Source of the DNA: a virus
Taxonomy: Duplodnaviria > Caudoviricetes
Virus record (IMG/VR): IMGVR_UViG_3300050034_000334
DNA: 64,000 nt
Strand: one strand, 5' to 3'
The translations under genes were made by a program, and so were the position numbers. Positions 32,844 through 57,454 of this stretch are shown piece after piece; the stretch's first letter is position 1, and each line of letters starts with the position of its first letter. The notes under the pieces are model-generated. The model searched no databases. It worked only from the letters and a program-made list of their open reading frames with translations, and was not told the DNA's origin.

Positions 32844-34895
32844 ATGAAACAGTACCTCACACTTGCAGTTCTAGCTTTCTCTCTTCCGATGTGGGCTCAG
32901 AGCACGGTTGCAACCGGAGACTCTAGAACAGTCACTGAGCCCATCTTTCCGTCAATCTGTGCAAGAGTGAATGCAACAAAGTACATCAAGCAGACGACTG
33001 CTGTGAACATTGATCCCTGGAATTCAACATGTGGATCTACTGGAGGAACCTTTGGGATTCTCTGGTGCACTGGAGGCACGGATTATCAGCCCTCGTCTTC
33101 GTCGAGCAGCTATGTCTCGGCGGAAACTCTGGACAACACGGCTGTACAGAATGCACTGAACTCTTGTCCCAGTGGTCAGGGAGTTGAATTGATCCCGGGC
33201 ACAAGTGGTCAAAATGCTTTCGTCCTCGCGCCGTTCAGCATCGTAAACAGTTCTGGAGCAGGAGTAAATCTCATTGTTGATGCAGGCATTCACGTGTTTG
33301 CCTCGCGCAATCTGTCTGACTACGGTGGCACCAACTGTGGACTGACAACTAACTCTACCAGTGATTGCAATCACTGGATCACTTCGCCCAGCACGACTGG
33401 CGCTGGCATCTATGGCTATGGAGTGCTTGATGGACGTGGATGGTCTGCTTACATCGGGCAAACAACTCATGGATTCTATGCCAATCGCATTCTAGCCTAC
33501 TGTGATGCTCATGGTGGAGCCATAGCTGGATCTCCCGGTTGCCCGAACACAACTTCTGGTGTGAACTCTTACGGGCCAAACGGGATCAATCTGATTGGCA
33601 CAACCAATTTCACCATGTACAAGATCTCATTGTGGAACAGTGGAAACTTCCTTATTAACTGGCAGAGTGGCAATGGGTTCACTGCCTGGGATGTGAAGCT
33701 GATCGCTCCGTTCGAAGTTTCGAATACGGATGGTTGGGATCCTCTCAACTCGACTAATGGTACGTTCACTCACAGCTTCATAAGTGTTGGTGATAACCAT
33801 ATGGCTGTGAAAGCAACATCAGGAGCTTCCTCCAACATCACGTTCTCAAATTCGCAAACCGGCGCTGGAATTGGAGTGGCAATTGGCACGAATGCTACAA
33901 ACGGGATATCCAACGTCCTGGTAGATACTTTGGTGCAAAATGGAAATCTCTACAGCACTCAGAGCGCAGGAATAATGATTGGATCGAGCACCGCAGACGG
34001 TGGCCTTGTCAACAAAGTGACCTATCGGAACGTCTGCATGGTGAACGAGTACAACTCGATTCGTTTATACACCAACTATGGCGGTAACACTGGGTCAAAT
34101 ATTCCTGTCTATCAAAACATCCTGCTGCGTAACATCACTGTGTTGCCCAGTACTGCTCCCTACACCACAGGCAACTCAGGCAGATATACCTTCCAGGGAT
34201 TAAGTGGACATCCAATAATTGCCCAAATCGACAACTTGCACATCCTGGGTACAAATCAAGGTGTCGCTGCTCAGTCAGGAGTAACGACTGATCAGTACTC
34301 GGCCATATACCTTGGTCCTGGGACGGTCGATTCCACGCTTCTAACCCAGTTTTCTGGTGGTACAGGAGTCACTACCTCTGGATCCACCACTTCCACTACG
34401 CAGTACGCTTGCACCAGCACAACCTGGCAGCCACTGATTGGCGAATTGAACATCAAGACTTCGGTTTCCAACAACAATCAAACAGCGACTGTGATAGCCT
34501 TGGCTCCGTTCACCCTACAGGCCGTCCTACAGCCATCGACAGCAATCAGCACAAAGGAATCTCCGGCTCTCACAGCCTCAGTGAATTTCTATGACAATTG
34601 TTTCACAACTCCGACAAGTTGTTCACCAATCGGAACTGTTGCGCTTTCAGGAGATGGGACATATGCTGCCTATACTCTATCCAGCGGAACTTCACTGGGA
34701 ACTCACAACTACATAGCTTATTATCCAGGAGATTCGAATTATCCAGCATACACATTTGGATCAGTCACGGTCACTGCAGTAACAGCGCCACCTGCTGCAA
34801 AGTCGTATGCACCCATTGTGATTGGTGAATTGGTGACCCCGGCAGGTTTCGAACCTGCGACCCTCTGCTTAGAAGGCAGATGCTCTATCCACTGA
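32844..34895 (+). CDS. Secreted GH28 polygalacturonase-like (PehA-like) beta-helix protein with C-terminal Ig-like domain
   Basis: Signal peptide, GDSRTVTEP, DGRG, NTDGWDP, VGDNHMAVK; last 21 codons antisense to tRNA-Arg. Confidence 0.8.
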   Translation: MKQYLTLAVLAFSLPMWAQSTVATGDSRTVTEPIFPSICARVNATKYIKQTTAVNIDPWNSTCGSTGGTFGILWCTGGTDYQPSSSSSSYVSAETLDNTAVQNALNSCPSGQGVELIPGTSGQNAFVLAPFSIVNSSGAGVNLIVDAGIHVFASRNLSDYGGTNCGLTTNSTSDCNHWITSPSTTGAGIYGYGVLDGRGWSAYIGQTTHGFYANRILAYCDAHGGAIAGSPGCPNTTSGVNSYGPNGINLIGTTNFTMYKISLWNSGNFLINWQSGNGFTAWDVKLIAPFEVSNTDGWDPLNSTNGTFTHSFISVGDNHMAVKATSGASSNITFSNSQTGAGIGVAIGTNATNGISNVLVDTLVQNGNLYSTQSAGIMIGSSTADGGLVNKVTYRNVCMVNEYNSIRLYTNYGGNTGSNIPVYQNILLRNITVLPSTAPYTTGNSGRYTFQGLSGHPIIAQIDNLHILGTNQGVAAQSGVTTDQYSAIYLGPGTVDSTLLTQFSGGTGVTTSGSTTSTTQYACTSTTWQPLIGELNIKTSVSNNNQTATVIALAPFTLQAVLQPSTAISTKESPALTASVNFYDNCFTTPTSCSPIGTVALSGDGTYAAYTLSSGTSLGTHNYIAYYPGDSNYPAYTFGSVTVTAVTAPPAAKSYAPIVIGELVTPAGFEPATLCLEGRCSIH

Positions 34896-34906
34896 GCTAC
34901 GAGGCC
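34831..34906 (-). tRNA. tRNA-Arg (TCT)
   Basis: Cloverleaf, loop CTTCTAA, CCA. Confidence 0.95.
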
Positions 34907-35136
34907 ACGACTTCTTCAGGTAATGGATCGCGGCAATACTGCCTTAGATTCCGATCACAAGACCCGATGCTCTTGTAATTTATCCTACCCTCTCGCAGTG
35001 TCATGTGATTGCAATCACTGGGAGTGTCCTCATTCTCGAGACATTCATCTTCCCAGTAGCACACTGGACAGATTTCATACACATGACGCACGTCTTCGAG
35101 AGTGTGATTACCGCAACAAGGACAAGGAAATAGCAT
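34897..35136 (-). CDS. Cys-rich CPCC domain protein
   Basis: FPCPCCG...EICPVCYWED. Confidence 0.85.
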   Translation of the reverse strand: MLFPCPCCGNHTLEDVRHVYEICPVCYWEDECLENEDTPSDCNHMTLREGRINYKSIGSCDRNLRQYCRDPLPEEVVAS

Positions 35137-35149
35137 GTCTCACCAAACT

Positions 35150-35226
35150 TGGTGACCGTGGAGGGGATTGAACCCCCGACCTGCGGTTTAGGAAACCACC
35201 GCTCTATCCAACTGAGCTACACGGTC
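35150..35226 (-). tRNA. tRNA-Arg (CCT)
   Basis: Cloverleaf, loop TTCCTAA, CCA. Confidence 0.95.
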
Positions 35227-35387
35227 ATGCCTAACTTCTCTTTCAGGTACTCTCTCATCTGATACACTTCGTTCGGCTTGCACCAGATGTACACCGGACC
35301 CGTTGGTGCGGGTATAAGGCTCTCAGCAAATGCTCTTTGGAGCATCTCCAACGTGATATCTCCCGCATTGGATTGTTTCAGTTCCAT
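35217..35387 (-). CDS. Small hypothetical protein between tRNAs
   Basis: MELKQSNAGDITLEML... Confidence 0.4.
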   Translation of the reverse strand: MELKQSNAGDITLEMLQRAFAESLIPAPTGPVYIWCKPNEVYQMREYLKEKLGMTV

Positions 35388-35395
35388 GGATGTTA

Positions 35396-35471
35396 TGGTG
35401 CGCCCGAAGGGACTCGAACCCCCAACCAACTGGTTAAAAGCCAGATGCTCTGACCATTGAGCTACGAGCGC
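35396..35471 (-). tRNA. tRNA-Lys (TTT)
   Basis: Cloverleaf, loop CTTTTAA, CCA. Confidence 0.95.
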
Positions 35472-35526
35472 ACAGTGCGTTTGCCAGGCTCGTCTGAAGG
35501 TTTTCGCATTGTGACACTCCTCTCTC

Positions 35527-35674
35527 AAAACTGATCTTAGAACCGGATCAGGGATTCCGGCAGGTTGTTAGCTGATCCGGTTCCTCGATTGATCAGGAGC
35601 GTTGAACTAGGTTTACCGAACTAGACGATCCGGATTACATGAGCACGGAGTGCTCGATGCGCGAATAGCCTCAT
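35527..35674 (-). promoter_or_regulatory. Candidate third leader/attenuator-like structured region
   Basis: 17 aa ORF 35674-35621; 12 bp stem 35540-35551/35572-35583. Confidence 0.35.
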
Positions 35675-35783
35675 CCTCTGTCTGAACCTCTACCTGAACA
35701 ACTCTCCTGAACCTCTAAACTTGGGGCCGAATCGCCTCGTGCACAGACGATATCTACCTCCGACTCGGCCAACATCGGTCATC

Positions 35784-36314
35784 TCAATAGAACAGGTACT
35801 TCTTCCACTTTTCCATGCCGGCACCCATAGAACGAATCAGGTTCCGGTTGGTGTGAATGGTCAATGGACGAGGGTAGCGAATCAGTTTCATGTCCTTGAT
35901 ATCGCTCAGATCCCTGTCGCCCTTCTTCTGGTTGCAAGCCTGACAAGCCGTGACCAGGTTCTCCCAGCAGTTCCTTCCACCCTTGGACTTCGGTACAACG
36001 TGGTCCCAGGTGAGATTCTTTGCTGAGAACTGAACACCGCAGTACTGGCAGGTGTAACCGTCGCGAAGGTAGATGTTCCGTCTGCTCAACTCCTGCTGAC
36101 GGTGTGGCACCTTCCGGTACTTCACCAGCCTGACTACGCAAGGAAGAAAGAATCCTGGACGAACCAAGAGGTCATACTCTTCCTCAGACTTGGCAACTCC
36201 CTTGATTACCATGCACAGTGCCCGCTGAGCACTCGCATAGCGCAGCGGCTCGTAACTGGCATTCAGTACGAGAACCGGAGTCGACTTGATGAGAGTGTTG
36301 GTTGCGGACAACAT
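35784..36314 (-). CDS. HNH endonuclease (McrA-like)
   Basis: VLVLNASYEP, NIYLRDGYTCQYCG, DHVVPKSKGG..WENLVTACQACNQKK. Confidence 0.92.
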   Translation of the reverse strand: MLSATNTLIKSTPVLVLNASYEPLRYASAQRALCMVIKGVAKSEEEYDLLVRPGFFLPCVVRLVKYRKVPHRQQELSRRNIYLRDGYTCQYCGVQFSAKNLTWDHVVPKSKGGRNCWENLVTACQACNQKKGDRDLSDIKDMKLIRYPRPLTIHTNRNLIRSMGAGMEKWKKYLFY

Positions 36315-36374
36315 GGTGGTTTCCTTTCTTGAAAAATGGTGGAGGATCGGTCCGGAATGACTTCACCCCCAAGT

Positions 36375-37001
36375 TCAGGCTGCCGACTTGATAGAGTCTA
36401 AAATTCTCACACATCTGGTCAAGTACCTGCTTCCTGAAGAATCACTCAATCCGACTTTTCTTAATGCTTGAGAAACAGTTTCAGACGTTCTTAGAGCTTC
36501 AAGCAACTGTTCATCTGAAATTCTTCCTTCGCTACTTCTACCCACTTTGTTTCCGCAATAGGTGGGCAACTGACTGTCACAATTGGGACAAATACCTCTG
36601 AAGTTACTGCGAGAATTGTTGGATCGCACACCATCTATGTGATCTAGCCGAAGAGATATGGGTTTTCCATTCCACTCGTCAATCCCACAGATTAAGCACT
36701 TTCCTCCTTGTTCCCTTACAACCCTTTCCTTCTTACTGCCATACCCTAGATCTTCAAAGGGAGTAGCAGCTGATCTGGCGAGTATCTTGGCAGCCCGTTT
36801 CTTTATCGCCTCTGCTGACTGAGAATTTTCTCGAAAGGTGACGTACTTTTCATGATGTTCGGAGTACGCCTTCCTGCTCTTCTCACTCCTGCTCCGATTT
36901 ACCTCCGGAGTCCAGGTCCTTGAATGACTACATTTGGAAGAGCAGAAATTTCCTTCTCCGTATGAGCCATCATGTTCCTTACCACACTTCTTGCAGATCA
37001 T
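36375..37001 (-). CDS. HNH homing endonuclease
   Basis: CKKCGKEHDG...CSSKC; LDHIDGVRSNN.RSNFRGICPNCD. Confidence 0.88.
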   Translation of the reverse strand: MICKKCGKEHDGSYGEGNFCSSKCSHSRTWTPEVNRSRSEKSRKAYSEHHEKYVTFRENSQSAEAIKKRAAKILARSAATPFEDLGYGSKKERVVREQGGKCLICGIDEWNGKPISLRLDHIDGVRSNNSRSNFRGICPNCDSQLPTYCGNKVGRSSEGRISDEQLLEALRTSETVSQALRKVGLSDSSGSRYLTRCVRILDSIKSAA

Positions 37002-37006
37002 TCTAA

Positions 37007-37031
37007 GGGACTCCTTATACTAAAGAATCCC
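37007..37031 (-). promoter_or_regulatory. Hairpin occluding RBS with AGTAT in the loop
   Basis: GGGATTCTTT-AGTAT-AAGGAGTCCC. Confidence 0.65.
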
Positions 37032-37042
37032 CTAGTTCAAAT

Positions 37043-37120
37043 TGGTCGCAGTGAAGGGATTTGAACCCCCGACATCTTTCTTATGAGGAAAGCGTTCTCA
37101 CCAGGCTGAACTACACTGCG
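37043..37120 (-). tRNA. tRNA-Met/Ile2 (CAT)
   Basis: Cloverleaf, loop CTCATAA, CCA; C1-G72 paired. Confidence 0.92.
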
Positions 37121-37155
37121 ATTTATTCTTCGAACTACACTGCGATTTATTCTTC
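37108..37155. repeat. Perfect 24 bp tandem duplication spanning the tRNA 5' end
   Basis: GAACTACACTGCGATTTATTCTTC x2. Confidence 0.95.
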
Positions 37156-37156
37156 G

Positions 37157-37321
37157 TCATTTCCGTTCATCAAGTTTCTCCTGGTGGCATTCCAAACACT
37201 TCTGCTTGAGAGGCCACTCGTTGTTACACGTCGTGACCTCTGTTGAGTTGCATGAAGGACAGTGAATCGAGGCCTTATCCAGCCATGCGAGCAGTTCCTG
37301 AAACTTCCTGTCGTCCTGCAT
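37157..37321 (-). CDS. Small zinc-ribbon protein
   Basis: CPSC...CLEC. Confidence 0.5.
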   Translation of the reverse strand: MQDDRKFQELLAWLDKASIHCPSCNSTEVTTCNNEWPLKQKCLECHQEKLDERK

Positions 37322-37487
37322 ATTCGGCCTTGATGTACTCAACTTCCTTGCTGTTGCAACTCTCGAGCTTCCGCCCGACCTTCCAATCCTTCTTGCGCTG
37401 CTCGATGACAAACTGAGTCCAAGTGTAAGAAGACGAGTAACTCGACTTCTCCTCGTAGCAGCGGAACCAAAGACCGTTGAAGTTCAA
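37275..37487 (-). CDS. Hypothetical protein
   Basis: ORF. Confidence 0.45.
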   Translation of the reverse strand: MNFNGLWFRCYEEKSSYSSSYTWTQFVIEQRKKDWKVGRKLESCNSKEVEYIKAEYAGRQEVSGTARMAG

Positions 37488-37490
37488 ATA

Positions 37491-37766
37491 CTATCCGTCA
37501 TACCACGAACGAGGGACCTCCCCACCTGGGAGACTTACCTGCAGTTCTTGACAGATGAACCTTGCAACATCTTCCGGATGGACTTCTCCGTCGCTCGTCT
37601 TCTTCCAGCGACCCCGGTCGATGTTGTCTTGTGACAAACCCATCAACTCACTCAAATCCTTGTGATGCATCCGACCATCCGGAAATCTCACGAACAAGTC
37701 GGCCTTGCCAATCTTGAAGAGGAACGTCACTCCTCGAACTACGATCCTACGCATGCGGGACTTCAT
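37491..37766 (-). CDS. Hypothetical protein
   Basis: ORF. Confidence 0.55.
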   Translation of the reverse strand: MKSRMRRIVVRGVTFLFKIGKADLFVRFPDGRMHHKDLSELMGLSQDNIDRGRWKKTSDGEVHPEDVARFICQELQVSLPGGEVPRSWYDG

Positions 37767-37920
37767 GAGGACCTTTCAGTGTCTTTTCCATCCTGGAGAA
37801 GCACCCTTCGAGTTGAATCAACGCCACGACACCAACTACAGCCAGACTGACAAACATCCCCACTAAACATCCGAACAGAAAGGCAAGATGCACCAGAGCG
37901 GAAATCTCATCAGGGTTCAT
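37747..37920 (-). CDS. 57 aa membrane protein (below ORF-track cutoff)
   Basis: MNPDEISALVHLAFLFGCLVGMFVSLAVVGVVALIQL. Confidence 0.5.
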   Translation of the reverse strand: MNPDEISALVHLAFLFGCLVGMFVSLAVVGVVALIQLEGCFSRMEKTLKGPHEVPHA

Positions 37921-38137
37921 GCCATTCTGATACTGCGTTTCGCTTCTCCAGCGAACTTTTACCTGCTGCGAGAGAGAGACGGACGGTTGTCGATACGTTT
38001 CAACCCACGCTCAAAAGAGCGACATTTGATCGAGGCCAGGTGCCGGTTGACAATCCACCACGTGCCTCTTCCCAGGATAGACGCGCCTCTCCGATCAGGA
38101 CTGTTCCGACCACCGGAGACTACCCTAGACTAAACTT

Positions 38138-38545
38138 TCACCACTCGAAGTCCTTTGCAAGATGAACATTCTTCACCTGCATATTCTTCGTCGGAGTAAA
38201 TCTAAGTGTCACAGTTCCGCCTCCTTGAAATTGTTGGATCGGTAACCAGTAGCACTTTTCTGTAGCGGGCAAGTAAGCAACTACCACATCAATCTCTTCA
38301 GACGTGTACTTCTTCTTGTATCCGCTATTTCGGCATTCAGCCGATAGACCCACTTCAACAGAATCCTTCGTCAAGCTACAGCTGCAATACTTCACTTGAA
38401 CCCTGAGAAGTTCCTTTCCGTTGTCGACCACCAAGTCGTACCTGGCGTCTACAGAAGGAACGCTCACAATCCATCCCAACTCGGTGGCTCGGAGCATGAC
38501 TTTCAGCTTTCCGATCTCACCCTTTTGATGAGTGCTTGCTAGCAT
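38138..38545 (-). CDS. PD-(D/E)XK endonuclease of the group I intron-associated (I-Ssp6803I-like) family
   Basis: KGEIG, RYDLVVD, RVQVKY, YTSEEIDVVVAY. Confidence 0.85.
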   Translation of the reverse strand: MLASTHQKGEIGKLKVMLRATELGWIVSVPSVDARYDLVVDNGKELLRVQVKYCSCSLTKDSVEVGLSAECRNSGYKKKYTSEEIDVVVAYLPATEKCYWLPIQQFQGGGTVTLRFTPTKNMQVKNVHLAKDFEW

Positions 38546-38567
38546 ATCTCATCAATACTCAAAACTT

Positions 38568-38643
38568 TGGTGCGAGCGGAGGGGATCGAACCCCCGACGT
38601 CCCGGTTAAGAGCCGGTTACTCTACCAACTGAGTTACGCTCGC
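38568..38643 (-). tRNA. tRNA-Lys (CTT)
   Basis: Cloverleaf, loop CTCTTAA, CCA. Confidence 0.95.
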
Positions 38644-38747
38644 ACATCTACAAAAAGGCTCTCCGGGGAGGTGGGCCATCCCTCCATACACTCCTCGCGA
38701 AAGAGAGTGTGTCTTGCCACTATGAAACGACCGGAAACTTACAAATT

Positions 38748-38913
38748 CAACGCCGGTGCTCTATCCAGGCTGAGCTACCACCAAGCGAATGGACCGTTCC
38801 GCCGACCTTGATTCCCCTCTAGAAAAGGAATCCTGGGACTCTTAGGGCATGGTCACTTGCTCTGTCTAAACGGGTGGGTTGGATTCGGACCAACGACCAC
38901 CGGCTGCTTGTTG
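38748..38913 (-). ncRNA. Circularly permuted tRNA-like RNA (class I core, no anticodon loop, no CCA)
   Basis: 3' half (38904-38871) precedes 5' half (38784-38752); stems complementary. Confidence 0.75.
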
Positions 38914-38938
38914 GGCGGAATGATCACACCCGAATCTT

Positions 38939-39013
38939 TGGCTCCTGAGGAGGGATTCGAACCCACAACCATTCGGTTAACAGCCGAACGCTCTGCCGTT
39001 GAGCTACCCAGGA
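38939..39013 (-). tRNA. tRNA-Asn (GTT)
   Basis: Cloverleaf, loop CTGTTAA, CCA. Confidence 0.95.
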
Positions 39014-39020
39014 ACACTTG

Positions 39021-39215
39021 TTATACTGCAACTTCCTCAATCTCGATCTGAACCTTCTTGCTGCTCATCACTTCGTCAGCAACACCGAAGGCAACCTCAT
39101 AATCCTCAAATCTGGTTGCCTCGTAGCGATATCCAAACCTCAAAGTGCGGGTGATCGCAGCATCGTCTGAGATGACATAGTTCGATGTATTCGGTACTCT
39201 CAAGATGTGCTGCAT
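39021..39215 (-). CDS. Small hypothetical protein
   Basis: ORF; motif variant (N15) upstream. Confidence 0.5.
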   Translation of the reverse strand: MQHILRVPNTSNYVISDDAAITRTLRFGYRYEATRFEDYEVAFGVADEVMSSKKVQIEIEEVAV

Positions 39216-39261
39216 GACCTTACCCTCTACTCCGATTTATGAGATCGGGTACTGCTGAATT

Positions 39262-39337
39262 TGGGGAGTCTAGAGGGATTCGAACCCTCGACTACTGGTG
39301 CCACAGACCAGCGTTCTACCGCTGAACTACAGACTCC
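39262..39337 (-). tRNA. tRNA-His (GTG)
   Basis: G-1/C73, loop CTGTGGC, CCA. Confidence 0.95.
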
Positions 39338-39348
39338 ATGAAATTGTT

Positions 39349-39422
39349 TGGCTGCCTCTGTAGGATTCGAACCTACATATCCTGGTCCAGAGCCAAGTGT
39401 CCTGCCATTGAACGAAAAGGCA
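39349..39422 (-). tRNA. tRNA-Gln (CTG)
   Basis: U1-A72, loop CTCTGGA, CCA. Confidence 0.95.
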
Positions 39423-39443
39423 ACATGTGAAACCGAACTTGTT

Positions 39444-39522
39444 GGGCAGGAACGGTGGGAATCCATTGACCTCCTGGTTGGAGCCAGAAGGCGTGGAAAC
39501 CCATTCTTCCGCTGAACTGCCC
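39444..39522 (-). ncRNA. Long irregular hairpin with anticodon-like apical loop CUCCAA
   Basis: GGGCAG/CTGCCC closing stem plus stacked helices. Confidence 0.45.
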
Positions 39523-39524
39523 GA

Positions 39525-39692
39525 CCGGGCAATGACTTCTAAGCTACATTCGCCGAAGCGAATGCTGGTCAACCTTCTCACCAGATCCCCGCCGTTGAAG
39601 GCGGTGCTTTGTTCGGACTCGCCACGGAGGTTCCAGCCTCATGGGTCTGTCCTGGTCTAGTCGCACTGGCCCCTGGAAGGTCCATTGCCCGG
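39525..39692 (-). ncRNA. ~170 nt multi-hairpin RNA
   Basis: 10 bp closing stem CCGGGCAATG/CATTGCCCGG; UUCG tetraloop hairpin. Confidence 0.55.
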
Positions 39693-39737
39693 AAACTTTA
39701 TTGCACGAACGAAAAGTAGACTAAGAGGCGGTGCAAA

Positions 39738-39884
39738 CTACTTGATGAACAATCCGTCAATCACGCTCTTGGCTTTGTCTTCCGTTCTGACATAGTTCCG
39801 GACCACGTAGGTCTCGGCTATGATGCGAAAGCCGCCATCTCGTAAAGGATGAATCGTATACCCGCGATATATTGTGTCTTCCAT
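39738..39884 (-). CDS. 48 aa protein, probably leaderless
   Basis: MEDTIYRGYTIHPL; ATG 6 nt after GTAGAG. Confidence 0.55.
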   Translation of the reverse strand: MEDTIYRGYTIHPLRDGGFRIIAETYVVRNYVRTEDKAKSVIDGLFIK

Positions 39885-39890
39885 ACGAAT

Positions 39891-39920
39891 CTCTACTGGA
39901 AAACCCAGCATATCGGTTAA
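39891..39920 (-). promoter_or_regulatory. Bipartite promoter-like motif TTAACCG-N17-GTAGAG
   Basis: Motif match. Confidence 0.65.
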
Positions 39921-39925
39921 TCTTT

Positions 39926-40000
39926 TGGCGGGAAATAGAGGAATCGAACCCCTGAGTTCTGATTTGGAGGCAGACAGTTTACCAACTAGCTTAATTTCCC
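39926..40000 (-). tRNA. tRNA-Trp (CCA)
   Basis: Cloverleaf, loop CTCCAAA, CCA; one anticodon-stem mismatch. Confidence 0.9.
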
Positions 40001-40001
40001 G

Positions 40002-40571
40002 TTGAATCCAGACTTTCGGAACCATTACTGGAGGTTCCAATTGAAATCTTGCGAAAATTGCACTACTCTTCACGATGGTACTTATGGTTCTGGTCGTTTC
40101 TGTTCAATTGGCTGTGCTAGAGGCTTTGCCACCAAAGCATCTAGGTTAAAAATCAACCAAGAAGTGAGTGCTAAACTGAAGGGTAAACCTGTTCGTAATC
40201 GTAGTCCTCATAGTAAAGAAGTGAAGGAAAAGATACGCAGAAGCATCAATCAAGGATTTCAAATCAAATTCCAAAAGTGGATAGATGACTGGCTTTCCGG
40301 AAAGATACATCCCACAAGAGCCAACTATAGAGTAGTGCACAAAGCATTAGCCATTTTAAGAGGAGATAAGTGTGAACAATGCGGTTGGAAAGAGGTTCAT
40401 CCGAAAACTGGACTTATCCCAGTGCAACTTCATCATATTGACGGTGATGGAGATAACAATTCACCAGATAATGTGAAACTGTTGTGTCCAAGCTGTCATT
40501 CACTCACTCTCAATTTCATGGCTTTGAACTACTACAACAAATTGTCAAAGATCACGCCGTTGTTCGCCTGA
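40002..40571 (+). CDS. HNH homing endonuclease, antisense to the tRNA operon
   Basis: CENC..HDG...CS..C; CEQCG..QLHHIDGDGDNN..NVKLLCPSCH. Confidence 0.88.
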   Translation: MNPDFRNHYWRFQLKSCENCTTLHDGTYGSGRFCSIGCARGFATKASRLKINQEVSAKLKGKPVRNRSPHSKEVKEKIRRSINQGFQIKFQKWIDDWLSGKIHPTRANYRVVHKALAILRGDKCEQCGWKEVHPKTGLIPVQLHHIDGDGDNNSPDNVKLLCPSCHSLTLNFMALNYYNKLSKITPLFA

Positions 40572-40588
40572 GCGAATCAATTCAAACT

Positions 40589-40665
40589 TGGTCGGGCCAC
40601 TAGGGTTCGAACCTAGGACCTTGGGATTATGAGTCCCTTGCTCTAACCAACTGAGCTATGGCCCG
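40589..40665 (-). tRNA. tRNA-Ile2/Met (CAT)
   Basis: Cloverleaf, loop CTCATAA, CCA. Confidence 0.93.
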
Positions 40666-40693
40666 AACTCGAACTCGGCTCGTGCAAAAACTT

Positions 40694-40770
40694 TGGTGAT
40701 CCCGGAGGGAGTTGAACCCCCAACCTTATGGTTCGTAGCCATACGCGCTATCCAGTTGCGCCACGGGACC
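40694..40770 (-). tRNA. tRNA-Arg (ACG)
   Basis: Cloverleaf, loop CTACGAA, CCA. Confidence 0.95.
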
Positions 40771-40789
40771 ACTCTCAAAATCCATCCCT

Positions 40790-40825
40790 AAAAACCAAAT
40801 CCCGCCAGCTTGTGGGCTTGGCGGG
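40790..40825 (-). terminator. Intrinsic terminator of the attenuator for tRNA array A
   Basis: CCCGCCAAGC-ccacaa-GCTGGCGGG followed by ATTTGGTTTTT. Confidence 0.75.
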
Positions 40826-40852
40826 TGGAAACTCTGAAAATACCAGGTAGGA

Positions 40853-40948
40853 TTACGCACTACCTCCAGAATCCAGACCGCCGATGGCATGCTGATTTCG
40901 CTGCCACTGCTTATGCTGTCTCATCGAATTGGTCTGTATCTGTTTCAC
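40853..40948 (-). CDS. 31 aa leader peptide of tRNA array A (MKQIQTNSMRQHKQWQRNQHAIGGLDSGGSA)
   Basis: AAGGGAG SD, GTG start; 17 of codons 2-20 cognate to downstream tRNAs. Confidence 0.75.
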   Translation of the reverse strand: MKQIQTNSMRQHKQWQRNQHAIGGLDSGGSA

Positions 40949-41010
40949 AGTACTCCCTTGACAAATTTCATAATACTACGGTTTCCTCTGATCGGGGAAA
41001 CTATTTTTGC

Positions 41011-41134
41011 CAGTGATTACGGAATCCTTTGTAACAAAACACTCAACCATGAAGGATTCGAACCTTCGCTATGAATGCACCCAATCATGACACTGTTCAG
41101 CACCAGGGGTCTACAAAGGATTCCGTAATCACTG
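41011..41134 (-). ncRNA. Small RNA closed by a perfect 23 bp inverted repeat, contains a T-arm
   Basis: IR 41011-41033/41112-41134; GAAGG-TTCGAAT-CCTTC inside; starts just after promoter motif. Confidence 0.6.
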
Positions 41135-41143
41135 TACATTACA

Positions 41144-41173
41144 CTCTACCGAACAACTTCTCAAAACGGTTAA
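41144..41173 (-). promoter_or_regulatory. Bipartite promoter-like motif TTAACCG-N17-GTAGAG (array A operon)
   Basis: Motif match. Confidence 0.7.
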
Positions 41174-41384
41174 TGATGCCTTTAGACAGATTCAGGGAGG
41201 TACTCGCGTCTTTTATCTCCCAGCCCGGTGGCCACCAGACAATTAGAAGATTGGCCTGACGCTTTCGCTCCCTGTCACTGCTCGAGTCTATCCTGTGTAC
41301 TTTAGGAAGCAAGGCTCTGTTGGCTCCACCGCGCAATGGGTGATGAAGACCTGCCCCTCACTCACTTGTCAACTCAATGGATTC

Positions 41385-41414
41385 CTCTACGGTGGTCTGT
41401 GGAGGAACGGTTAG
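41385..41414 (-). promoter_or_regulatory. Bipartite promoter-like motif CTAACCG-N17-GTAGAG
   Basis: Motif match. Confidence 0.65.
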
Positions 41415-41426
41415 GCGGTCACTGGC

Positions 41427-42500
41427 TCATCGGTCAGTTGGGCATCGGCCATCGTTCAGACGAAGAGTGAACTGAGCGATATGAACTGGCTCATTCTCTT
41501 TGATGGCCTTCTGCCAGTAGAACTGATACTGACTGGCGTAACCTGCCAGCTGGGCATCCTCCAGTGTGAACTTCACAAAGGGGATGAGATTTTTGCCTCC
41601 CTCGATGCCGAACAAACGGGGACCAAGAGCCTTCCTGATTCTGGCATAGGTGTAGCTGATGTAGATGCCAGGACTGGTGACGTTGCACCAGTTCTCAATG
41701 TCGAGGATGGTGTTCTTCCCGACTGCAGCTGAGTTGAACTGCCAGGCCAGGACGTTCCATGCCAACTGAGGAGAGACTACAGCGTTCTCGCTGGGCTTGA
41801 TCACCTTGCTAACTTCTTCGAACAGTTCCTCAGCCGCCACAAGGTTCGCTTCTGCTCCCTCCTTCTCCCGGGAGCGCATCTTCTTGTAGTCCTTGCCCAG
41901 AACCAGACCCATCGGCTTGTGCTGATCTCCCAATCCCAGGCTCTTGAAATGTTCGTGTTGCTCATACCCTGTCAGATATAAGTCCGGAGCACAGAATTCT
42001 ACGAAGCTCAGATCGTGTGCTGCATAGGTTGGACGACCGTCAGAGCGGTATATCACGACACCGTTGAACATCTTACAGCCTTCGTACTCTCCGGTGCCGG
42101 GAGTCAGTGTGTATCCTGTGGGCGGCTTCATGTCCCTATCAAATAAGATGAATGGCTGATATCCGGAGATGTGACACCAGTTGTTGAATGCCGTGTACGC
42201 TCCCTCTTTCTCGCCAATGGTGACTCCCAGCATTGCGACTGGCTTGGCTTTGGTGATATTTGCCAGCGCGGCGGCGATTGCCAGGTTCTTGATGTGCCCG
42301 ACATGAAGGTCTTTGTTGAGGTTAGGTGAGAATCCATCCAGAGTTATCTCGGATGGTTTGGCTTTCTCAGGCCATTCCCAGACGGTTGGCGTTACATGGT
42401 AGTTGTGGTAAATACCCACAGATTCATAACGAAATCCCTTGAGATCGAGTGGAGTGAGTGAAGTGACACCAACTCCCACTTGTTCAGGTATAGGATGCAT
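41427..42500 (-). CDS. Minimal arginyl-tRNA synthetase-like class I aaRS
   Basis: FSPNLNKDLHVGH (HIGH), YRSDG.PTYAAHDL, GYEQHEHF, KMRSR (KMSKS), YISYTYARI. Confidence 0.8.
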   Translation of the reverse strand: MHPIPEQVGVGVTSLTPLDLKGFRYESVGIYHNYHVTPTVWEWPEKAKPSEITLDGFSPNLNKDLHVGHIKNLAIAAALANITKAKPVAMLGVTIGEKEGAYTAFNNWCHISGYQPFILFDRDMKPPTGYTLTPGTGEYEGCKMFNGVVIYRSDGRPTYAAHDLSFVEFCAPDLYLTGYEQHEHFKSLGLGDQHKPMGLVLGKDYKKMRSREKEGAEANLVAAEELFEEVSKVIKPSENAVVSPQLAWNVLAWQFNSAAVGKNTILDIENWCNVTSPGIYISYTYARIRKALGPRLFGIEGGKNLIPFVKFTLEDAQLAGYASQYQFYWQKAIKENEPVHIAQFTLRLNDGRCPTDR

Positions 42501-42553
42501 GAGATCTTCCTCTCCAACCACATTCTACCAGAAGATGCCGGAATAAGGCTAGT

Positions 42554-42589: not shown

Positions 42590-43297
42590 ATGAAAAAGAC
42601 AATCCGTCTCACCGTGGGCAATGTCGAAACCTCTGGCGCGGAAGCTATTGTCAACGCAGCGAACAGGCATCTCAAGACTGGTCGCGGTGTATGCGGTGCG
42701 ATCTATGCCGCCGCTGGCGTGACAGAGCTTGAAACCTATGTAGCAGATCACTTTGAAGGCTGCCGCACCGGCAGAGCCGTGGTGACTCCAGCGTTTGGCA
42801 TCAGCGGATCCAAGTATGTCCTCCACGCTGTTGGTCCGATCTACTCCGAATACACTCCCCTAGAGGCGGCTCGCCTCCTCCGCAAAGCCTATCACTCGAT
42901 CTTTGAACTCTGCTACTCGCTGGGAGTCAAGAATGTCGGCGTCGTGGCGATCTCGTCTGGTATCTACGGGTATCCGGTTGAAGACGTTGCGAACATCGCG
43001 GCTGACGAGGCCATGCGCACCCCTTACAAGGGCGACATCACCTTCTACGTCTGGCAGGACAATCTGGCCGTCTTCGAGAAAGCCTTCGCTTCGATCCTCA
43101 CTCCAGCAGTTCCTGTGATCGTCGATAAGTGCGCTGTATGCGATTTGCCGGCTGACCACATCGACCATATCGGCCTTCTTGGAATGGGAATTGACCATCC
43201 TTTCAAAAGTTCACTGCAGCCAGTTACACCAGTATCTGATCCTGTGGACGCGAGCACGCGCAAGGTCTTCACGATGGATGACCCAGCAGTAGTCTGA
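42590..43297 (+). CDS. Macrodomain ADP-ribose hydrolase
   Basis: AIVNAAN..L..G.GVCGAIYAAAG, VLHAVGPIY, AISSGIYGYP. Confidence 0.93.
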   Translation: MKKTIRLTVGNVETSGAEAIVNAANRHLKTGRGVCGAIYAAAGVTELETYVADHFEGCRTGRAVVTPAFGISGSKYVLHAVGPIYSEYTPLEAARLLRKAYHSIFELCYSLGVKNVGVVAISSGIYGYPVEDVANIAADEAMRTPYKGDITFYVWQDNLAVFEKAFASILTPAVPVIVDKCAVCDLPADHIDHIGLLGMGIDHPFKSSLQPVTPVSDPVDASTRKVFTMDDPAVV

Positions 43298-55441: not shown

Positions 55442-55528
55442 TGGTCGGAGCGAAGGGATTCGAACCCTCCCGATGTTGCCACCATGAGCACCTCAAGCTC
55501 ACGCGTCTGCCAGCTTCGCCACGCTCCG
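55442..55528 (-). tRNA. tRNA-Leu (GAG)
   Basis: Loop TTGAGGT, CCA. Confidence 0.95.
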
Positions 55529-55534
55529 ACATCT

Positions 55535-55750
55535 TCAAACTTCTGTTCTCACACTCTTGGGGAGATCCAACCCCCATCCACGTTGAATATTCTCCGAGTC
55601 CGTGGTCATGAACAACTCTTTGACCTTCCATCGGTCACTCGGATCCTTATCAAGATCTACCTCAACACCGGGCCTCAGTCGACGGTCAGCAGGCAGCCAG
55701 GTGATCATGTGGCTAGTTCCCTGTTGGATTAGTGCCTGAATCAGCTTCAC
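55535..55750 (-). CDS. Small hypothetical protein between tRNAs
   Basis: AAGGA RBS, GTG start. Confidence 0.55.
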   Translation of the reverse strand: MKLIQALIQQGTSHMITWLPADRRLRPGVEVDLDKDPSDRWKVKELFMTTDSENIQRGWGLDLPKSVRTEV

Positions 55751-55769
55751 GGTGTTCCTTTCAAATCTT

Positions 55770-55861
55770 TGGTGCAAGCGGAGGGATTTGAACCCCCAAT
55801 GTTAGCTGCTAGAGCGGCAGATTTACAGTCTGCTGCGACCAACCGTATTCGCCTCGCTTGC
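55770..55861 (-). tRNA. tRNA-Tyr (GTA)
   Basis: Loop CTGTAAA, long variable arm, CCA. Confidence 0.95.
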
Positions 55862-55863
55862 AC

Positions 55864-55890
55864 AAACAAAAACCACTCCCGGAGGAGTGG
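55864..55890 (-). terminator. Intrinsic terminator of the attenuator for tRNA array B
   Basis: CCACTCC-tccg-GGAGTGG-TTTTTGTTT ending 2 nt before tRNA-Tyr. Confidence 0.85.
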
Positions 55891-55918
55891 CTCTTGTGAA
55901 CTTGGTTTTGAGGTCGTC

Positions 55919-56011
55919 TTATATGCCTCTCCACCTTGCCACAGAGCCACTCGGCAAGCTAAGGTAATAGCTTGACAGTGACGGGGACGAAGATAGAGAC
56001 AGTAAACGCAT
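55919..56011 (-). CDS. 30 aa leader peptide of tRNA array B (MRLLSLSSSPSLSSYYLSLPSGSVARWRGI)
   Basis: GAGG SD 9 nt upstream; 16 of codons 3-19 are Leu/Ser/Tyr. Confidence 0.8.
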   Translation of the reverse strand: MRLLSLSSSPSLSSYYLSLPSGSVARWRGI

Positions 56012-56038
56012 GACGAAATTCCTCACTCTTACATGATA

Positions 56039-56068
56039 CTCTACTGAGCGGAAAAGTAAAGCGGTTAG
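56039..56068 (-). promoter_or_regulatory. Bipartite promoter-like motif CTAACCG-N17-GTAGAG (array B operon)
   Basis: Motif match. Confidence 0.7.
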
Positions 56069-56073
56069 GAAAA

Positions 56074-56316
56074 CTATTTTCCCGTGACGACGGATTTCTC
56101 TTTACGAGTGGCACTATTGGCAATGTCTTCATACTCGAATTCTTGGAGTTTGTGAAGGTTCTTCATCTGAAAACGAACACCCTGGGCTGCCGTGATCTCC
56201 TCATATCCTGTGGGAGTAGCTTCACCACGATAGATCTGGAGGAGAGGTCCTCCCTCAACAGGAAAAGCAATCAGGGGGAAATCTCTCATGTAGGCAGTTA
56301 GCTGATCGTCTTCCAC
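56074..56316 (-). CDS. Hypothetical protein
   Basis: ORF. Confidence 0.45.
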   Translation of the reverse strand: MEDDQLTAYMRDFPLIAFPVEGGPLLQIYRGEATPTGYEEITAAQGVRFQMKNLHKLQEFEYEDIANSATRKEKSVVTGK

Positions 56317-56320
56317 CAGG

Positions 56321-56641
56321 TTGTCTTCGTTAAATTCTTCACCAGACTCTTCCTCTCATCAAGAGTACCAACACGACGAGATCAAGGTCAAAGGTCGCAA
56401 GTTTCACTCCGACCAGTACCTGGCGACGGTTGAGCATCCCATTCCTCCTGCCGGCGAATATCGTGTGACCCGCACCAGCTATGGCGGCGGCGGAACAGGC
56501 ATGGGTCCCCATGACGTCTTTCCGGACGGTCATCGCGTGTATGCCAAGCCGGTCAATGCCGACGAGCCACTCATCTCATTCTATCAGACCGGCTGCTTCA
56601 CGGCCATGATCGAAAATCCCAAGATTGTTTCAAGAGTCTGA
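56321..56641 (+). CDS. Hypothetical protein
   Basis: GGGTGMGPHDVFPDGHRVYA. Confidence 0.5.
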   Translation: MSSLNSSPDSSSHQEYQHDEIKVKGRKFHSDQYLATVEHPIPPAGEYRVTRTSYGGGGTGMGPHDVFPDGHRVYAKPVNADEPLISFYQTGCFTAMIENPKIVSRV

Positions 56642-56680
56642 ATTCCTGTTCCTTCGTAGGAGTGGAAAATGAAATCAAAA

Positions 56681-57040
56681 CTACTGAAGACAGCTGCTGG
56701 GGAAGAGTATGCTGTATTTCTTGGTGGAGATGATCAAAGCGAGGGTGGCCCTGTGATCTCCACCGGGATAACAGGTACTCTTGAGCAGATATTTTCGAGA
56801 ACCGATCATTTGTACACCCGACTCAGTGAATTGGAGGTCTACTTCACGAATGTTGACCTTGCGAACTCCGTCGTCTTCTAGACCTTCCAGAAACTTCTGA
56901 TCCACCAGTAGATATACATTGCCAAAGTAGTCTGGAGGAATGGTGACTGTTGCTTCATAGGGAGTATGTCCCTCTTTGGCGACTCGAACATGGTCACCTA
57001 GATCAACGGCGAGAGGAGGAAACCTTAGAATCTTTGCCAT
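56681..57040 (-). CDS. Hypothetical protein, probably leaderless
   Basis: ATG 7 nt after GTAGAT of motif 57048..57077. Confidence 0.55.
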   Translation of the reverse strand: MAKILRFPPLAVDLGDHVRVAKEGHTPYEATVTIPPDYFGNVYLLVDQKFLEGLEDDGVRKVNIREVDLQFTESGVQMIGSRKYLLKSTCYPGGDHRATLALIISTKKYSILFPSSCLQ

Positions 57041-57047
57041 GAATGAA

Positions 57048-57077
57048 ATCTACTCTCTTTTGCATATAATCGGTTAG
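57048..57077 (-). promoter_or_regulatory. Bipartite promoter-like motif CTAACCG-N17-GTAGAT
   Basis: Motif match. Confidence 0.65.
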
Positions 57078-57121
57078 CGGAGCCAGTATCAAGAGTTGGT
57101 CATTGCCGATTGGAGATCAGA

Positions 57122-57454
57122 ATGAAACGTACTATCCTCTTTGTACTGCTGTTCATCGCCTCCGTGTGTGTAGTCACAGCACAGGATAAACCTGTTGTAA
57201 ATAGAGTTGTTCCAACTGCCGCACCACCAATCCTTGGCACCGCTGATCGCCTTGCTCTCCAGGGCTTAGAGAAGATCAAGGCTGATGCTCAGAAACAATG
57301 GAGCGAGGCCAACGATCAGGAATTCGCTGTCATGCGTGAATGGCAAGTTGCTCATCCAGGCTGGCATGTCTTCTACAATCCTCAGGGCGACGCCAAGAAC
57401 TTCACTATCGTGCAGGACGAGAAGCCCAAGACGAAGGTTGAAGAGAAGAAGTAG
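57122..57454 (+). CDS. Secreted hypothetical protein
   Basis: MKRTILFVLLFIASVCVVTA-Q signal peptide. Confidence 0.65.
   Translation: MKRTILFVLLFIASVCVVTAQDKPVVNRVVPTAAPPILGTADRLALQGLEKIKADAQKQWSEANDQEFAVMREWQVAHPGWHVFYNPQGDAKNFTIVQDEKPKTKVEEKK

Follow-up and report, generated by a model that had tools for sequence, protein, structure and literature searches.

A codon-mirroring leader ORF ahead of a phage tRNA array and its likely role in transcription attenuation

Introduction

The usual view is that tRNA genes are controlled at their promoters alone, through growth rate and the stringent response, and why and when phages express sets of tRNAs remains an open question. A 187-kb virus record from peat metagenomes (IMGVR_UViG_3300050034_000334; Duplodnaviria, Caudoviricetes) poses that question in an unusually specific form, as one of its tRNA arrays lies behind a short ORF composed largely of codons that the array's own tRNAs would read, with a terminator-like hairpin between the two. 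Could this ORF be the leader of an attenuator, through which the demand for a group of tRNAs governs their transcription? An initial annotation, made by a model without database searches, had proposed such an attenuator. The analysis presented here shows the anatomy of the locus, its codon match, its recurrence and its covariation across relatives; the regulatory steps that would connect them are inferred, and we mark them as such where they arise. Coordinates refer to the window, the 64,000-nucleotide stretch of DNA that was analysed, unless whole-genome coordinates are stated.

Results

Anatomy of the leader region

A promoter-like motif, a Shine-Dalgarno sequence, the leader ORF, a hairpin, a T-rich tail and a tRNA-Arg gene follow one another on the minus strand in that order, as listed below.

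41007..40970, minus strand: promoter-like motif, AAAATAGT at 41007-41000, a 24 nt gap, then TATTAT at 40975-40970
40971-40945, minus strand: upstream ORF (uORF) of 8 codons, ATG to TGA, the TGA overlapping the leader GTG
40959-40953, minus strand: Shine-Dalgarno sequence AAGGGAG, 4 nt ahead of the GTG
40948-40853, minus strand: leader ORF of 31 codons with a GTG start and a TAA stop (40855-40853)
40945..40889, minus strand: regulatory codons 2-20, of which 17/19 are cognate to 10/11 downstream tRNAs
40936..40902, minus strand: segment 1, CAGACC ... GTGGCA, which pairs with segment 2 in free RNA
40889..40861, minus strand: segment 2, the putative 5' antiterminator strand, with TGCCAT (40889-40884), GGCGG (40882-40878), GGTCTG (40879-40874), TGGA and TTCTGGAGGTA
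40842..40819, minus strand: segment 3, with TATTTTCAGAG, TTCCA and CCCGCCA, the putative 3' antiterminator strand and terminator 5' arm
40825..40790, minus strand: terminator-like hairpin and tail, 7+2 pairs, -17.4 kcal/mol
40770..34831, minus strand: array of 11 tRNAs with interspersed homing-endonuclease genes

The promoter-like motif occurs in identical form before the leader of the Val/Gly/Asp/Ala/Glu array of the same genome, and variants of it precede the leaders of the other two arrays and that of a metagenomic relative, contig L013. Promoter function, with a transcription start at the motif near 40970, is an inference and has not been shown. Attenuators call for a short translatable ORF, and the leader ORF meets this criterion; its translation is inferred from the Shine-Dalgarno sequence and GTG, and from the fact that the L013 orthologue was called as a gene. 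The initial annotation had described the ORF, its GTG start and 4-nt spacing, the overlapping uORF, the codon list with its six CAG codons and the absence of matches in codons 21-31, all of which held. We rejected the uORF as a functional unit: its ATG lies inside a conserved TATTATG motif that is also found at the Val/Gly/Asp/Ala/Glu leader, and there is no such uORF before the L013 orthologue. It is probably no more than a piece of the promoter-like motif.

The arms of the hairpin are CCCGCCA (40825-40819) and TGGCGGG (40807-40801), with two further inner pairs, and the T-rich tail ATTTGGTTTTT extends to 40790; tRNA-Arg(acg) begins at 40770, 19 nt on. An attenuator requires an intrinsic terminator at this point, ahead of the first tRNA gene, and the hairpin with its tail fits the requirement, with termination itself inferred from sequence alone. 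A consensus terminator scan missed the hairpin at 40825-40790, as its rule admitted only loops of 3-8 nt. A promoter would not fit into the 19 nt between the T-run and tRNA-Arg, and transcription of the array must therefore pass through the terminator.

The array encodes, in order, Arg(acg), a tRNA with a CAT anticodon, Trp, Gln(ctg), His, Asn, Lys(ctt), a second CAT tRNA, Lys(ttt), Arg(cct) and Arg(tct). Four endonuclease genes lie among the tRNAs (35784-36314, 36375-37001 and 38138-38545 on the minus strand and 40002-40571 on the plus strand), three of the HNH type and one of the PD-(D/E)XK type. Internal promoters within this 6-kb array with its endonuclease genes are not excluded.

The leader codons mirror the array

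Codons 2-20 read AAA CAG ATA CAG ACC AAT TCG ATG AGA CAG CAT AAG CAG TGG CAG CGA AAT CAG CAT. All except ACC and TCG can be decoded by tRNAs of the array (17/19), and 10 of the 11 array tRNAs find a cognate codon in the leader, Arg(cct) being the sole exception. By comparison, none of codons 21-31 belongs to the array codon set. The count, which the initial annotation had also given, holds under standard wobble, with inosine at position 34 of Arg(acg) and with one CAT tRNA taken as Ile2. Reading of A34 in Arg(acg) as inosine is standard bacterial biology. The Ile2 identity is plausible and unproven: the CAT tRNA at 40665-40589 shares 82.6% identity with an E. coli plasmid CAT-anticodon tRNA that RefSeq annotates as tRNA-Ile, and the second CAT tRNA resembles elongator Met.

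The earlier annotation had suggested weighing the match against genome codon usage. The array codon set accounts for 0.238 of genome coding usage, giving a binomial probability of 2.6e-9 for at least 17 matches in 19. Across the six frames of the whole 187-kb genome, codons 2-20 are the sole stretch to reach 17 among 374,004 windows of 19 codons, and this best-matching stretch lies 175 nt upstream of the array on the same strand. The leader likewise ranks 1 of 2,822 short ORFs (15-60 codons). The match between codons and anticodons is far beyond chance. The exclusive use of CAG for glutamine (6/6 codons) is not significant on its own, since CAG makes up 65% of Gln codons (P ~0.075).

RNA folding and the proposed switch

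The free RNA folds with CAGACC paired to GGUCUG and GUGGCA to UGCCAU, and with the terminator formed; the 1:2 pairing required of attenuators is therefore present. When the 5' part is masked in ViennaRNA, GGCGG...TTCTGGA pairs with TTCAGAG...CCCGCC, the very pairing that the initial annotation had proposed alongside the terminator at 40825-40790, so that both of these claims held. The resulting long hairpin (40882-40820) carries the stop codon in its apex and has a stability of -26.3 kcal/mol with its GGCGG:CCGCC base helix and -15.6 without it, compared with -17.4 kcal/mol for the terminator alone.

The antiterminator is the least convincing part of the case. When a ribosome footprint is included in an equilibrium folding model, the probability of the terminator is ~1 at every ribosome position on the leader, and any switch must therefore be kinetic. 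The structures point the same way, as the competing base helix has just five G-C pairs and the terminator's inner AGC/GCT pairs provide a toehold. The terminator of the E. coli trp leader is likewise more stable than its antiterminator. A longer alternative helix is also possible, in which the stretch ahead of the terminator pairs with the stretch just before tRNA-Arg. The leaders of the Tyr/Leu/Ser and Val/Gly/Asp/Ala/Glu arrays of the same genome behave differently: each contains a 10-nt stretch within the ORF that is perfectly complementary to the terminator 5' arm, and in the same footprint model both switch cleanly, with a low terminator probability when the ribosome stalls at regulatory codons and a high one near the stop and in free RNA. 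Of the three clear cases in the genome, the antiterminator studied here, inferred as it is without experiment, is the weakest.

Matched leaders precede all four arrays of the genome

ARAGORN finds 31 tRNAs in the 187-kb record, arranged on one strand in four arrays (whole-genome coordinates 55447-57190, 70538-76477, 153994-156223 and 181579-182182). Within ~200 nt upstream of every array lies a short ORF enriched in that array's own codons. Leu/Ser/Tyr codons precede the array of Tyr, Leu x5 and Ser; Val/Gly/Ala/Asp/Glu codons precede the array for those amino acids; and Pro/Phe codons precede an array of Pro, Phe, Pro and Pro. The leaders cover 7/7, 10/11, 9/9 and 4/4 of their own tRNAs, 30/31 in total, and the true assignment of leaders to arrays ranks 1 of 24 permutations. 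A hairpin and T-run stand right before the first tRNA in 3/4 arrays; no obvious terminator was found for the fourth array leader, which is the weakest case. One sister leader also lies in the window:

55919..56011, minus strand: sister leader ORF of the Tyr/Leu/Ser array, with a 10-bp perfect antiterminator and an unrelated peptide

The initial annotation had claimed that this leader shares the logic of the one studied here with no relationship in sequence, and had predicted leaders before the remaining arrays. The first claim held, with the qualification that the antiterminator of the sister leader is the stronger; the second held for Gly/Ala/Val/Asp/Glu and for Pro/Phe codons.

Several further observations concern these arrays. 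Their tRNAs are sorted by type, with long-variable-arm tRNAs together, tRNAs for GNN codons together and Pro with Phe. Six of the codons in the Tyr/Leu/Ser leader are TCN Ser codons, and ARAGORN finds only Ser(gct) in its array; the counterpart array in the cultured phage Tunturi 5 carries Ser(gga) and Ser(cga). Possibly, TCN-reading tRNAs were lost from the array or are present in an unusual form. A close relative (contig L002, genome G001, ~250-940) has an identical Pro/Phe leader peptide, with an insertion of ~540 nt between that leader and the first tRNA-Pro.

An orthologous leader in a metagenomic relative

Relatives of the leader proved scarce. Megablast of the region against the phage collection gave no match, and in viral_contigs none was found either with four DNA patterns (the tRNA-Arg block, the Shine-Dalgarno sequence with the first codons, a tRNA-Pro block common with Tunturi 5, and the leader blocks) or through the arginyl-tRNA-synthetase (ArgRS)-like protein encoded upstream. 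Among homologues of that protein, P0002, P0008, P0022, P0031 and P0035 did not adjoin tRNA arrays; only P0026 did, within a similar array on L013, a 134.7-kb metagenome contig. This array comprises Trp, His x2, Arg(ccg), Arg(acg), Trp, Asn x2, one CAT tRNA, Gln(ctg) x2, Lys(ctt), Arg(tct), Arg(cct) and Lys(ttt) x2. Ahead of it stands the orthologous leader:

L013:6272-6373: leader ORF, called by the depositor's gene caller as a gene of 33 aa and followed by a terminator

Its ATG start follows AAGGA after a 6-nt spacer, and 15/18 of its regulatory codons match its own array. The differences between the two leaders follow the tRNAs: L013 has both a CGG codon and Arg(ccg), and the leader studied here and its array have neither; the L013 leader has no ATA codon and its array only one CAT tRNA, the identity of which is unclear. 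The set of regulatory amino acids is retained, and amino acid changes fall at the two unmatched positions, where Thr (Ala in a natural variant) is replaced by Ser and Ser by Pro.

The DNA blocks AAACAG, CCAAT.CGATG, AGCGAAATCAGC, GGTCTG and TGGAGG are common to both leaders. The C-terminal part of the peptide is not conserved, and the nucleotide blocks GGTCTG and TGGAGG within it are kept. The L013 terminator differs in sequence (CCCTAGCC/GGCTAGGG), and an upstream strand at the same codon positions, GCTATGGGTC, pairs with it; in L013 the base helix contributes -15.3 kcal/mol, compared with -14.5 for the terminator. The antiterminator strand has therefore changed together with the terminator, although this is a single compensatory comparison. 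A pattern scan of metagenomes returned 12 loci, six of them chance hits and six true; as the true loci represent only two leader types, formal covariation statistics were not possible.

Codon-matched leaders in cultured phages

The nearest cultured relative is Tunturi 5, a 309-kb jumbo phage of the acidobacterium Tunturiibacter, the clamp loader of which is 40.6% identical; an acidobacterial host for the peat jumbo phage is inferred. Tunturi 5 has three arrays, each behind a matched ORF and a terminator, with 38/40 tRNAs represented in their own leaders and the true assignment ranking 1 of 6. Its tRNAs are partitioned differently from those of the peat phage, and the leaders follow the partition. 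Cys codons are confined to the leader that precedes the array with tRNA-Cys; Gln/His/Asn codons have shifted with their tRNAs to the leader shared with Thr/Pro/Ala/Phe/Gly; and the leader of the Trp/Met/Lys/Arg array includes Asp/Glu/Val/Gly codons, the tRNAs for which that array holds. Across the two phages, all seven leaders match only the array that they precede. Orthology between the leader studied here and the T3 leader of Tunturi 5 was considered and rejected, as the global alignment is unreliable and only the Shine-Dalgarno sequence and first four codons are shared.

The Caulobacter phage phiCbK carries depositor-annotated terminators immediately ahead of tRNA blocks, and the ORFs before two of these terminator-headed blocks cover 9/9 and 8/8 of the block tRNAs. 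The Tunturi 5 paper (PMC11924767) lists tRNAs and contains neither the word leader nor attenuation, and the phiCbK genome paper (PMC3556154) likewise makes no mention of leaders or attenuation. What these leaders have in common with ours is the succession of elements, from a promoter-like motif through a matched mini-ORF and a terminator to the tRNA block; they differ in having unrelated peptide and RNA sequences and other sets of tRNAs in each unit.

Natural variation and genomic neighbourhood

The stretch occurs in runs from peat, wetlands and fresh water. A single natural variant was seen across the leader region, a minus-strand A>G at 40933, which turns ACC into GCC at unmatched codon 6 and keeps the pairing of segments 1 and 2, with G-U in place of A-U. 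In one metagenome run, the leader and first tRNAs show 1 difference in 492 nt, as against 10 in 289 nt in the adjacent stretch, 41134-41422. As a separate observation, a strain (L022 4850) with the Thr6Ala leader variant and a similar array has an extra Arg(ccg) tRNA and no CGG codon in its leader. Contigs from two metatranscriptome libraries bridge the leader, terminator and first tRNAs, although carry-over of DNA is not excluded and such contigs cannot reveal where transcripts end. They end where DNA-library contigs end, at a 23-bp inverted repeat near 41100, and therefore do not reveal a transcript start.

This repeat belongs to an element at 41011-41134 (minus strand), directly upstream of the promoter-like motif, in which a perfect 23-bp inverted repeat surrounds ~78 nt and encloses a tRNA T-arm-like hairpin (GAAGG TTCGAAT CCTTC); its fold has a stability of -56.8 kcal/mol (z = -6.8), and it has no Rfam match. 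A different long hairpin occupies the equivalent place before the Val/Gly/Asp/Ala/Glu leader. The element might be a terminator, an insulator or a rearranged tRNA-like RNA, none of which is more than a possibility.

Further upstream, 41427-42521 (minus strand) encodes the compact ArgRS-like protein (its database twin has 394 aa), just ahead of the array, the first gene of which is tRNA-Arg. Its homologues number 257, measure ~300-450 aa and in many cases lie on contigs of 100-650 kb; one relative carries the gene inside its tRNA array. Divergent from this gene, 42590-43297 (plus strand) encodes a Macro-domain protein (Pfam E = 7e-29).

Discussion

A model for attenuation of a tRNA operon

We propose that the locus is a ribosome-mediated, leader-peptide transcription attenuator placed before a phage tRNA operon, a reading that we consider likely (probability about 0.77) in the absence of any experimental evidence, with the promoter, leader translation, termination and switch all inferred. 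In this model, transcription would start near 40970 and the 31-codon leader would be translated behind the moving RNA polymerase. Smooth translation to the stop at 40855-40853 would place the ribosome in the middle of the long hairpin (40882-40820), its GGCGG:CCGCC base helix would fail, and the terminator (40825-40801) would form and halt transcription 19 nt before tRNA-Arg. Conversely, a ribosome slowed at any of codons 2 to ~17 would cover segment 1 and leave segment 2 free, so that the long hairpin would tie up the 5' arm of the terminator and polymerase would read through into the array. The slowing codons (AAA, CAG, ATA, AAT, ATG, AGA, CAT, AAG, TGG and CGA) would each be read by an array tRNA. 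The result would be negative feedback, in which the tRNA set is made when decoding of exactly the leader codons is limiting, whether host tRNAs are scarce, degraded, cleaved or uncharged, and is turned off when supply is adequate. The earlier label of tRNA-integrity sensor held only in part; it too is an inference, and the element would respond to slow decoding whatever its origin. Against an attenuator stand the GTG start with its short spacer, the lack of a codon for Arg(cct) and the two unmatched codons, ACC and TCG.

Alternative explanations

The rival that survives best is that the leader does sense codons and that its output is something other than termination, such as Rho access, RNase processing or the stability of the tRNA precursor, with the hairpin serving as a processing or stability element. 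In its favour, the equilibrium model yields no terminator switch for this leader, the longer helix that reaches to tRNA-Arg is possible, and the fourth array leader is without an obvious terminator. However, canonical GC hairpins with T-runs precede three arrays here, three in Tunturi 5 and the one in L013, and phiCbK has annotated terminators; the upstream strand covaries with the terminator 5' arm in L013; and the Tyr/Leu/Ser and Val/Gly/Asp/Ala/Glu leaders switch cleanly in the same model. We therefore regard this alternative as unlikely.

Less likely still is that the ORF encodes a small functional protein, with the hairpin as its own terminator and the codon match as a side effect of a polar, basic peptide. 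Indeed, gp308, the counterpart in Tunturi 5, is listed as a hypothetical protein, and the L013 leader was called as a gene. However, the C-terminal third is not conserved as a peptide whereas its nucleotide blocks are, all seven leaders in the two phages match their own arrays alone, and the tRNAs would be left without a promoter of their own given the 19-nt gap. Finally, a chance pairing of a random short ORF with an ordinary terminator is all but excluded: short ORFs are plentiful and the frame was picked by a reader who had already viewed the sequence, but the genome-wide best of all the windows scanned lies directly before its matching array, and the arrangement recurs at every array and in other phages.

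Relationship to known systems

The proposed attenuator has clear precedents in amino acid operons. Multivalent attenuators are well known, with Ile/Val/Leu codons in the ilvGMEDA leader and Thr/Ile codons in the thr leader, alongside trpL, hisL and leuL. Shared with these are a promoter-proximal short ORF holding several kinds of regulatory codon, the 1:2 and 3:4 segment pairings with a putative 2:3 pairing, a terminator before the first structural gene, and, in the proposed model, termination as the default that follows smooth translation of the leader. The amino acid operon attenuators control enzymes, whereas this phage-encoded leader precedes tRNA genes; in place of runs of a single codon it addresses ~10 anticodons and 8 amino acids, most of them with just one or two codons, and is matched at the level of the anticodon, with CAG alone accompanying Gln(ctg) and ATA accompanying an Ile2-like tRNA.

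Closer in target is the pheM leader, which attenuates E. coli pheST, encoding phenylalanyl-tRNA synthetase, in response to one amino acid and with a protein product. Like the proposed element, it is a case of leader-peptide attenuation of a translation component and reads the supply of charged tRNA. T-box riboswitches also let tRNA status set a terminator or antiterminator upstream of translation-related genes; they differ in binding uncharged tRNA directly, with no need for an ORF. Searches of the window gave no match to the Rfam leader families (Trp, His, Leu, Thr and Phe) or to T-box, and only tRNAs at gathering scores; at E<=1, nothing relevant emerged in 40760-41430. Among phage answers to tRNA depletion, the T4 repair of tRNAs against PrrC and nuclease-resistant phage tRNAs provide repair or replacement functions. 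Both these systems and the proposed attenuator would keep decoding capacity up during infection, and T4-type systems are not known to include a demand-sensing regulator of phage tRNA genes.

The full-text literature searched yielded no account of tRNA genes controlled by a leader peptide, in phage or elsewhere. As far as that search shows, the mechanism of attenuation is known, while the tRNA-gene target, the many-codon mirror design and the phage setting are new.

Implications for phage tRNA genes

If the model is correct, this would be the first known attenuator of tRNA genes, a many-input OR gate as opposed to a sensor of one amino acid. The way in which phage tRNA genes are grouped would then also be accounted for, with one shared sensor for each group. 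More broadly, it seems likely that codon-mirror leader attenuators form a general, undescribed class of phage regulator that makes tRNA arrays demand-driven units, with homeostatic tRNA expression answering host shut-off and possibly tRNA-cleaving defences, in unrelated lineages with culturable hosts (Tunturiibacter and Caulobacter). The design is carried by two cultured phage-host pairs and can therefore be put to the test at the bench, where, if the model holds, it would provide a direct readout for codon-usage mismatch, host tRNA decay or anticodon nucleases as the triggers of phage tRNAs.
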